A DNA stretch of 64,000 nucleotides from Candidatus Aenigmatarchaeota archaeon (GTDB lineage Archaea > Aenigmatarchaeota > Aenigmatarchaeia > GW2011-AR5): NCBI GenBank assembly GCA_039091535.1, contig JAWCLW010000001.1:11881-75880 (forward strand), given 5' to 3'. This document shows, piece after piece, positions 3,642-64,000 of the stretch; within the stretch, counting starts at the first letter, position 1, and every line of letters starts with the position of its first letter. The notes below the pieces were generated by a model, which did not search any database, was not told the origin of the DNA, and was given only the letters and a program-made list of their open reading frames with translations. The position numbers and the translations under genes are program-made.

Positions 3642-3772
3642 CCCCTGATAGCTCAATGGTGCAACAAAATGCATTAAAGAGCGCGTGGCTGTAGACGAGC
3701 TCTATTGAGCTTGTCACCAGTAGGTGCTCGGAAATTACCATGAGGTTGGGAGTTCGAATCTCCCTCAGGGGA
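3642..3772 (+). tRNA. tRNA-Tyr (anticodon GTA) with C1:G72 pair and two predicted introns (about 16 nt in the D-loop, 42 nt at 37/38)
   Basis: Acceptor cccctga/tcagggg+A73 (C1-G72 is the archaeal Tyr identity pair); U8 A9; D stem gctc...gagc separated by 24 nt; anticodon stem cgtgg/ccatg enclosing ctGTAga plus 42 extra nt with a cgagc/gctcg helix; T arm gggag-ttcgaat-ctccc. Confidence 0.75.
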
Positions 3773-3860: not shown

Positions 3861-5126
3861 ATGGCTGAGAAGAAACCACATTTGAACTTAGTAACCATTG
3901 GTCATGTTGACCATGGTAAATCTACACTTGTTGGTAGATTATTATACGATACAGGAGCTGTCAGAGATGAACAGATGAGAAAGTTAAAAGAGCTTGCAAA
4001 AGAACTAAAGAAAGAGACATTCGAGTTTGCATTCGTAATGGATAAGCTTAAGGAAGAAAGAGAAAGAGGATTGACAATAGACATCATGCATCAGAGATTT
4101 GATACACCGAAGTATTATTTTACAATCATAGATGCACCAGGTCATAGAGATTTTGTCAAGAACATGATTACAGGGACTTCACAAGCAGATGGTGCAATCC
4201 TTGTTGTTTCAGCAAAAGAAGGTATTCAAGAACAGACAAAAGAACATGCATATCTTGCTAAGGTCTTAGGTGTGAACCAAATGATTGTAGCAATAAATAA
4301 AATGGACGCAGTAAAATACGATGAATCAAAATTCAAAGAAACAAAAGAAGCAGTGGAAAAATTATTGAAAGGTGTTGGCTTTAAGGTAGAAGAAATACCT
4401 TTTGTACCTACATCAGGTTTCATGGGTGATAATGTTGCAAAGAAATCAGAAAATATGCCATGGTACAAAGGACCTACTATAGTAGAAGCACTTGATTTGT
4501 TTAAAGTACCTGAACAGCCAATAGATAAACCACTAAGACTTCCAGTACAAGATGTTTATACAATAACAGGTGTTGGTACAGTTCCAGTAGGACGCGTTGA
4601 AACAGGTATAATGAAACCAAATGACAAGATTATTTTTGTCCCTTCAGGTGCTCAGGGTGAGGTAAAAAGTATAGAAATGCATCATGAACAAATACCAGAA
4701 GCGCGTCCAGGTGATAATGTTGGCTTCAATGTACGTGGAATAGGAAAAGGTGATGTAAAGCGTGGTGATGTTGTCTGTCATCCACAAACAGCAGCAAAAC
4801 CAGTAAAAGAGTTCACTGCTCAGATTATTGTACTAAATCATCCGAGTGTAATAAGCAAAGGTTATACACCAGTTTTCCATGTGCATACAGCACAGGTTGC
4901 ATGTACAATAACAGAAATACTTAAAAAACTTGATCCAAAAACAGGTGCAGTTATTCAGGAAAATCCTGATTATATAAAAACTGGAGATGCAGCTATTGTA
5001 AAGGTTAAACCATCAAAACCTTTGGTAATAGAGAAACAATCAGATATCCCACAAATGGCAAGATTTGCAATACGCGATATGGGTCAAACAGTGGCTGCAG
5101 GCATTTGCATAGATACTGTCGTATAA
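3861..5126 (+). CDS. tuf: Translation elongation factor 1-alpha (aEF-1A)
   Basis: [17 protein letters not shown] and NKMD GTPase motifs; 421 aa; followed by S10 as in the conserved archaeal arrangement. Confidence 0.97.
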
Positions 5127-63421: not shown

Positions 63422-63661
63422 TTAGACAACAACTCTATAATATTCTGTTTCTGAATCTCTAAATATTTTAATCACATCACCATGCTTTGCTCCCAAAAAT
63501 TTTGCTACAGGATCTTCTTTTTTTATACGTGGGAGATGTTTTATTGTAATATTTAATCTCTTAAGTAGTTCTGCCTTTTCTTCACTGCTGAGCAAAATCT
63601 GTTTTGGCACAAGTCCACTTTTGAAAATATCTATCTCATTTTCATATTTTTTTGTACTCAT
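63422..63661 (-). CDS. rpoH: RNA polymerase subunit H (Rpo5)
   Basis: 79 aa; VPKQILLSSEEKAELLKRLNI...GDVIKIFR; first gene of the rpoH-B-A'-A'' block. Confidence 0.9.
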   Translation of the reverse strand: MSTKKYENEIDIFKSGLVPKQILLSSEEKAELLKRLNITIKHLPRIKKEDPVAKFLGAKHGDVIKIFRDSETEYYRVVV

Positions 63662-63674
63662 AATATCACCATTA

Positions 63675-63846
63675 TGGGTCCGACGGGATTCGAACCCGCG
63701 ACACCCGGCAGAAGAGACATACGGTTTCTCTCTTCTTTATAAGGGTATGATTAGAGCCGTATTTTCATTTCCCCCATTTAAAAGGCCGATGCTCTTTCCT
63801 ACAATGCGTCCTTCAACAATCATGCACCAGGCTGAGCTACGGACCC
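63675..63846 (-). tRNA. tRNA-Lys (anticodon TTT) with two predicted introns (~30 nt in the D-loop, ~66 nt at the anticodon loop); 172 nt precursor
   Basis: Minus-strand read: GGGTCCG-TA-GCTC-AGCCTGGT[~30 nt]AGAGC-A-TCGGC-CTTTTAA[~66 nt]GCCGG-GTGTC-GCGGG-TTCGAAT-CCCGT-CGGACCC-A; exons reconstitute a canonical archaeal tRNA-Lys(UUU). Confidence 0.7.
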
Positions 63847-63883
63847 ATTTTTCTATTGATGATTCTATCTTTTTGCTAGATAG

Positions 63884-63956
63884 CGCCTCGATCGGGATTT
63901 GAACCCGAGTCATAGCCTCGACAGGGCTATATGCTAGTCCGCTACACCATCGAGGC
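63884..63956 (-). tRNA. tRNA-Asp (anticodon GTC), no intron
   Basis: Minus-strand read: GCCTCGA-TG-GTGT-AGCGGACTA-GCAT-A-TAGCC-CTGTCGA-GGCTA-TGAC-TCGGG-TTCAAAT-CCCGA-TCGAGGC-G. Confidence 0.8.
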
Positions 63957-64000
63957 ATTGAAGCATAATTGTTTTCCATCCAAATTCTATTTTCATAACT

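Follow-up and report, generated by a model that had tools for sequence, protein, structure and literature searches.

Locus and gene structure

The window, which here means the whole 64-kb stretch of DNA that was analyzed, contained a lysine tRNA gene of Aenigmatarchaeota (DPANN) that was interrupted by two introns. The tRNA-Lys(UUU) gene was located on the minus strand at 63675..63846. It spanned 172 nt from G1 (63846) to the discriminator A73 (63675), consisted of three exons and had no CCA encoded in its sequence. Exon 1 (63826..63846, minus; GGGTCCGTAGCTCAGCCTGGT) covered tRNA positions 1-20, and alignment to intronless orthologues gave a unique exon junction, GGT|AGAGC. Intron 1 (63796..63825, minus; 30 nt; GCATGATTGTTGAAGGACGCATTGTAGGAA) was located in the D loop at position 20/21. 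Exon 2 (63779..63795, minus; AGAGCATCGGCCTTTTA) covered positions 21-37, intron 2 (63711..63778, minus; 68 nt) was located in the anticodon loop, and exon 3 (63675..63710, minus) covered positions 38-73. These limits apply to a junction of intron 2 at 37/38; for a junction at 38/39, exon 2 extends to 63778 (A38), intron 2 occupies 63710-63777 and exon 3 begins at 63709.

On the minus strand, the gene read GGGTCCG-TA-GCTC-AGCCTGGT-(30 nt)-A-GAGC-A-TCGGC-CTTTTAA-(about 68 nt), followed by GCCGG-GTGTC-GCGGG-TTCGAAT-CCCGT-CGGACCC-A. The acceptor stem was GGGTCCG/CGGACCC, the variable loop was GTGTC and the T arm was GCGGG-TTCGAAT-CCCGT. All 21 stem pairs of the joined exons were standard. After removal of both inserts in silico, ARAGORN called a tRNA-Lys(ttt) of 74 nt whose cloverleaf was regular. 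The original prediction of a minus-strand tRNA-Lys(UUU) was borne out by this splicing in silico, and by the near-identity and the shared tRNA-Asp/tRNA-Lys/rpoH position with the tRNA-Lys(UUU) genes of relatives. Its structural elements also stood, except for the D stem AGAGC: the stem was GCTC/GAGC, and the A was position 21. The D-loop insert, given as about 30 nt, was exactly 30 nt long and could be placed at 20/21, where the central helix scored 4/4 and each bulge had 3 nt; the anticodon-loop insert, given as about 66 nt, measured 68 nt. The latter had been placed at 37/38 or 38/39, and both registers indeed gave a 7-nt loop and were called as tRNA-Lys by ARAGORN.

The tRNA-Lys locus was missed when ARAGORN was run on the window with or without the intron option, and only tRNA-Thr and tRNA-Asp were called. 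The Rfam tRNA model found three tRNAs in the window and also missed the locus. Among Rfam models at a permissive threshold, the tmRNA model alone bridged the two tRNA-like ends (14.5 bits). A custom scan of both strands for a T arm and a 7-bp acceptor complement within 450 nt yielded exactly four loci, namely the three tRNAs found by Rfam and tRNA-Lys, which argues that the arrangement is no chance match. Since both ARAGORN and the Rfam tRNA model miss the gene, automated annotation may report tRNA-Lys(UUU) as absent and understate genome completeness. The problem of missed tRNAs has been raised earlier for DPANN and Asgard genomes (PMC5829648).

The G+C content was 63.5% in the exons, 43% and 38% in the two inserts, and 29.6% in the window. 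The gene was neither split nor permuted, as the three exons were contiguous and collinear within 172 nt. The stability of the whole-precursor fold was not unusual (z = -1.31).

An intronless tRNA-Asp(GUC) gene (63884..63956, minus; ARAGORN, and Rfam with 60 bits) was located 37 nt upstream of tRNA-Lys. Downstream were rpoH (63422..63661, minus; NCBIfam), an unsplit rpoB, rpoA' and rpoA''. The RpoB and EF-1alpha encoded in the window were 100% identical to NCBI proteins assigned to a metagenome-assembled Candidatus Aenigmatarchaeota archaeon. The start codon of rpoH, preceded by GGTGAT, lay 14 nt past the 3' end of tRNA-Lys, so the RNA polymerase operon is probably co-transcribed with the tRNAs or starts inside the tRNA gene. 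Two ORFs of 80 and 93 codons (63737-63979, minus; 63621-63902, plus) overlapped the two tRNA genes. These ORFs are almost certainly spurious, and gene callers could report them.

Orthologous genes and intron layouts

Orthologues were searched by a 3' 25-mer scan of species-representative genomes, by a gapped pattern scan of metagenomes, and via contigs encoding RpoH and RpoB homologues. The joined exons of the window gene were identical to the spliced gene of L003 at 73/74 positions and to the intronless gene of L028 at 71/74. Among ten DPANN tRNA-Lys sequences, the cloverleaf was paired in 100% of cells, and six pairs covaried with changes on both sides. The order tRNA-Asp, tRNA-Lys, rpoH was kept in L003, L008, L024, L026 and L028, and tRNA-Asp and tRNA-Lys were also adjacent in L016 and L017. 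The spacer between tRNA-Lys and rpoH in the relatives ranged from 31 to about 205 nt.

Six intron layouts were found among eight orthologous tRNA-Lys(UUU) genes: none; 22/23; 37/38; 22/23 with 37/38; 22/23 or 20/21 with 59/60; and 20/21 with the anticodon loop. The gene of L028 (RpoB 79%) had no intron. The gene of L024 (RpoB 83%) had an intron at 22/23 only, and the tRNA-Lys(UUU) genes of L016 and L017 had one at 37/38 only. L008 (RpoH 76%) carried introns at 22/23 and in the T loop at 59/60, L026/L027 (RpoB 79%) at 20/21 (85 nt) and 59/60, and the tRNA-Lys(UUU) of L003 at 22/23 and 37/38. The window gene combined 20/21 (30 nt) with the anticodon loop (68 nt). A homologous intron 2, sought for covariation, was not found; the nearest relative by RpoB (83%, L024) had a different layout. 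The eight orthologues form a compact data set on how rapidly introns of the endonuclease type appear, disappear and change position.

The neighboring tRNA-Asp gene, intronless in the window, had D-loop and T-loop introns in L016 and a D-loop intron in L017. In L024 (780-950), it had a D-loop and/or T-loop intron. Introns in the tRNA-Asp genes of relatives and none in that of the window indicate that intron turnover affects neighboring tRNA genes independently.

The D-loop intron

Alignment to intronless relatives allowed a single junction for intron 1, GGT|GCATG...GGAA|AGAGC. The bulge-helix-bulge (BHB) core was of the 3-4-3 type, with a central helix CCUG:UAGG (4/4) and the bulges GU|G and AA|A; intron 1 therefore had the two 3-nt bulges with a 4-bp helix between them that define a BHB. 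The inner helix (h') was 2 bp long, and the outer helix (h, the D stem) was 2 unpaired bases away. Shuffled versions of intron 1 reached 4/4 with a chance of 0.025. All six D-arm introns examined scored 4/4, with helix sequences that were different and compensating (the tRNA-Lys and tRNA-Tyr of the window and L026 at 20/21; L003, L008 and L024 at 22/23). Positions 20/21, 22/23 and 59/60 are known non-canonical intron sites (PMC4090602).

Structure of the anticodon-loop intron

The BHB search that had been proposed for both introns turned out positive for intron 1 and not for intron 2. The canonical central helix of intron 2 scored 0/4 in both registers that yield a 7-nt loop, and the 12 other introns of the set (D arm, T loop and anticodon loop) scored 2-4/4, 11 of them at least 3. 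One half of the canonical 37/38 motif was present at the 5' site (63735..63784, minus), with a geometry that matches the one described in PMC4090602. In this half-site, C32-U35 (63784-63781) paired with AAAG (63738-63735) as helix H, followed by a 3-nt bulge, U36 A37|A (63780-63778), and by a 7-bp helix h' (63777-63771 with 63745-63739). The resulting 11 pairs, broken only by the 3-nt bulge, were matched by 0.00065 of shuffled introns.

The second hairpin of the intron (63710..63736, minus; AGAAGAGA/TCTCTTCT; 8 bp with an 11-nt loop) belonged to the minimum-energy fold. It abutted the anticodon stem at the place where the 3-nt 3' bulge is expected. Eight base pairs abutting G39 occurred in 0.004 of the shuffles. 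Six bases in the loop of one intron hairpin, AUACGG (63762-63757), were complementary to six in the loop of the other, CCGUAU (63724-63719), within 63719..63762 on the minus strand (p = 0.008 by loop shuffling), and the alternative fold using this loop-loop pairing was 3.6 kcal/mol above the minimum.

The minimum-energy fold contained both intron hairpins and an open anticodon loop, and both junctions of intron 2 lacked a bulge in this fold. The half-site (BHB-like) fold was 4.2 kcal/mol above the minimum; in it, the unpaired stretch that separates the hairpin from the anticodon stem was C-U (or U-C-U). Only in this 4.2 kcal/mol fold did the 3' site show a relaxed motif, a 2-3-nt bulge flanked by the hairpin and the anticodon stem.

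Neither intron showed the boxes of a C/D small RNA (no CUGA and no RUGAUGA; the best C-like string was AAUGAAA), and no Rfam family matched the introns up to E = 10. The "7x7 internal loop" register, which is used by tRNA-Tyr, was rejected for tRNA-Lys at 11 kcal/mol above the minimum. A strict but blind BHB scan that considered every pair of cut sites in the precursor was also discarded. Its top pair (69|70 with 87|88) cannot give a tRNA, and the scan was noisy because the A+T-rich sequence with purine and pyrimidine runs yields chance motifs.

Proposed splicing of the precursor

In archaea, it is established that tRNA introns are cut by a splicing endonuclease and that the exons are joined by an RtcB-type ligase. 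Judged from sequence and predicted folds, the locus most probably encodes a functional tRNA-Lys(UUU) with three exons and two introns that are spliced by proteins of the endonuclease type (probability of about 85%). The precursor would be transcribed, probably jointly with the upstream tRNA-Asp. Its ends would be trimmed, and CCA would be added after transcription, because it is not encoded. The archaeal tRNA splicing endonuclease (EndA) would cut each exon-intron junction, and an RtcB-type ligase would join the exons. Intron 1 would be recognized through its regular 3-4-3 BHB core. At the 5' site of intron 2, the first two anticodon bases would pair with the intron, followed by the 3-nt bulge and the 7-bp helix; at the 3' site, the hairpin would take the first bulge position and leave C-U before the anticodon stem. 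An endonuclease with relaxed specificity would then recognize the two cut sites of intron 2 separately, each as a helix-bulge-helix half-site. A weak motif scan for the endonuclease saw no endonuclease or ligase gene in the 64-kb window or the fetched loci.

[quoted passage not shown] Broad-specificity endonucleases cut relaxed motifs and tolerate bulges of 1-4 nt (PMC3239211), and relaxed motifs are likewise cut by endonucleases that have extra loops (PMC4090602, PMC3239211, PMC5829648). As the sole breaker of the BHB rule, intron 2 offers a natural test substrate for the relaxedness of the DPANN endonuclease.

The fold models lean toward a junction of intron 2 at 37/38, with the cuts A37|A and C|U and a mature loop CUUUUAU (U38), which we regard as slightly more probable than all other positions together. 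In the half-site fold, each of these cuts follows the second unit of the bulge, one base before the next helix. This is the placement of the normal motif, which favors 37/38.

A junction at 38/39 (63777..63710), with the cuts A38|A and U|G, CUUUUAA contiguous in exon 2 and A38 kept, is a less probable but serious competitor. The 37/38 reading gives U38, and A38 was invariant in 10/10 related tRNA-Lys sequences, which argues for 38/39; in six of the ten, which have no anticodon-loop intron, A38 could be read directly. The 38/39 reading also needs no substitution in the alignment to the intronless orthologue of L028, and a 4-nt 5' bulge, within the 1-4 nt tolerance (PMC3239211), could move the cut by one base. 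However, H, h and h' were all zero in this register, and both cuts fell at helix ends, outside the bulges, in every low-energy fold. The significant half-site of H, bulge and h' indicates a cut after A37.

It is unlikely, though conceivable, that intron 2 is composite, that is, an ordinary 37/38 intron with a separate hairpin module inserted in its 3' bulge. Such a module may be akin to a hairpin that a relative carries in its tRNA-Lys/rpoH spacer, next to a duplicated 3' end of tRNA-Lys. The 3' hairpin of the window (GAGAGAAACCGTATGTCTCTTCT, 63710-63732, minus) was 20/23 identical to this hairpin (L026, 1035-1057), which was its best non-self match in 434 kb. The match is treated as a lead, because its score barely exceeded the background (31 against 29). 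If intron 2 is composite, either the endonuclease accepts a whole hairpin where a bulge base would normally stand, an undescribed splice-site architecture, or two nested rounds of splicing take place, and the locus would record a recent event of intron remodeling or transposition. A junction at neither 37/38 nor 38/39 is unlikely.

We consider it very unlikely that the gene is disabled or decaying, with the 3' splice site destroyed by the hairpin insertion and another tRNA-Lys(UUU) gene in use. Decay would fit the fact that intron 2 was the sole one of 13 related introns with a 0/4 central helix, and that standard tRNA finders miss the locus. Against it, all four stems were intact, the syntenic position was the same as in every relative examined, and the intron had kept a non-random structure. 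The exons differed from those of relatives at 1-3/74 positions and the introns could not be aligned, and such strong constraint on the exons beside unalignable introns argues for a working gene.

Also very unlikely is an intron within the intron, in which a 22-nt inner hairpin (63732..63711) is removed first and a canonical 37/38 BHB is removed afterwards: removal of pre-tRNA positions 115-136 does restore AAAG + AAU + GCCGG (H 4/4, h 5, h' 7), and the 20/23 match of the hairpin in L026, where its surroundings differ, would be in keeping with a module acquired on its own, but the BHB of the inner element itself was poor (H 3/4, h 1, h' 1), the register it needs was less stable than the 8-bp hairpin by about 10 kcal/mol, the hairpin had no other copy in the window or the viral contigs, the L026 likeness hardly rose above background, and purine/pyrimidine repeats produce many spurious two-step solutions. 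An enumeration of two-step splicing gave more than 100 weak solutions, among which only the removal of 115-136 restored a canonical BHB.

Sequence elements around the hairpin

Besides the 20/23 hairpin match, a second short motif, GGGAAATGA(R)(R)AT, was common to the window, L026 (two copies) and L008, in collinear order. A repeated or mobile element was considered as a source of the 3' hairpin and rejected, as further copies were absent from the window and the viral contigs. When the introns were compared with all loci by short-word BLAST, the matches were at chance level only.

In L026 (about 940-1082), the last 10 bases of tRNA-Lys and the 11 bases downstream (GTCGGGCCCATAATATTTGCA) were repeated exactly about 120 nt downstream. 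In L024 (about 1185-1200), the tRNA 3' end occurred a second time in degenerate form (AATCCTGTCGGACCTA). Integration at the tRNA gene could have left these copies as remnants, or they could stem from a duplication.

Strand-symmetric CCYTTTCTT-loop-AAGAAARGG hairpins recurred in the D-loop and T-loop introns of the relatives (L003, L008, L016, L017, L026 and others). In many contigs of related Aenigmatarchaeota, they also occurred in spacers between genes, such as the one that directly follows rpoH. The introns of the window contained none of them.

Comparison with known systems

Multi-intron tRNAs with non-canonical intron positions are known in Thermoproteales, ARMAN-2, other DPANN and Asgard archaea (PMC5829648, PMC3239211, PMC4090602, PMC11291895), and disrupted tRNA genes are numerous in DPANN lineages (PMC5829648). 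The unusual element of the present gene is the 3' site of intron 2, with a hairpin in place of the bulge; otherwise the gene follows this known archaeal habit. The literature examined contained no description of multi-intron tRNAs in Aenigmatarchaeota, which is absence of evidence only.

The tRNA genes of Thermoproteales and other archaea have up to three introns per gene (Sugahara et al. 2007, 2008; PMC4090602, PMC3239211). Their non-canonical sites include 20/21, 22/23 and 59/60, with BHB or relaxed (HBh'/hBH) motifs at the junctions; the tRNA-Lys gene resembled them in its multiple introns and in the BHB core at its 20/21 site. It differed in its phylum, Aenigmatarchaeota (DPANN), in its very A+T-rich genome, in the length of intron 2 (68 nt, where the median is 12-25 nt) and in the hairpin that replaces the 3' bulge. 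The pre-tRNA-Glu(UUC) of Methanopyrus kandleri likewise has introns in the D loop and the anticodon loop, and an archaeal endonuclease was able to cleave it in vitro (PMC5829648). In M. kandleri, the D-loop intron is relaxed (HBh') and the 37/38 intron is canonical, whereas the tRNA-Lys gene appears to show the reverse.

The disrupted tRNAs of ARMAN-2 and other DPANN also have introns at various positions, and co-evolution of this pattern with endonucleases bearing extra loops has been suggested (PMC3239211; PMC5829648); the genomes analyzed in those papers did not include Aenigmatarchaeota. The tRNA genes described in Atabeyarchaeia and Freyarchaeia (Asgard) belong to a different superphylum (PMC11291895). 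The tRNA-Trp intron that hosts a box C/D small RNA is, like intron 2, a long (about 65 nt) and structured anticodon-loop intron (PMC4090602), but intron 2 of tRNA-Lys had no C box, no D box and no Rfam match.

Other interrupted tRNA genes

The other multi-intron tRNA of the window, which the original prediction had implied, was tRNA-Tyr(GUA) (3642..3772, plus); it had inserts of 17 and 42 nt and was identified by the Rfam tRNA model (47.1 bits) and, in its spliced form, by ARAGORN. Its intron 1 (3661-3677, plus; 17 nt) was located at 20/21 (H 4/4, h 4), and its intron 2 (3695-3736, plus; 42 nt) at 37/38 (H 2/4, h 5, h' 5). The window gene for EF-1alpha was located at 3861-5126, and an independent Logan assembly (L029, a 2.8-kb contig around EF-1alpha) was 100% identical over the tRNA-Tyr locus; Logan run SRR27730043 contains the same organism. 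Two of the four tRNA genes in the window were interrupted twice. Multi-intron tRNA-Lys and tRNA-Asp genes were also present in related Aenigmatarchaeota contigs, and with the same habit in these relatives, multiple tRNA introns are a lineage-wide, fast-changing trait. Together with tRNA-Tyr in the 64-kb window, the genes of the relatives lend support to the originally suggested genome-wide trait, which may hold.

In L012-L015, a fragment ending in GGATTTCAAATCAGGTCGGCGTCGGGCCCA was located about 220-260 nt upstream of rpoH. It resembled the 3' end of a tRNA, with no recognizable 5' part nearby, and may represent a more heavily disrupted or split tRNA.
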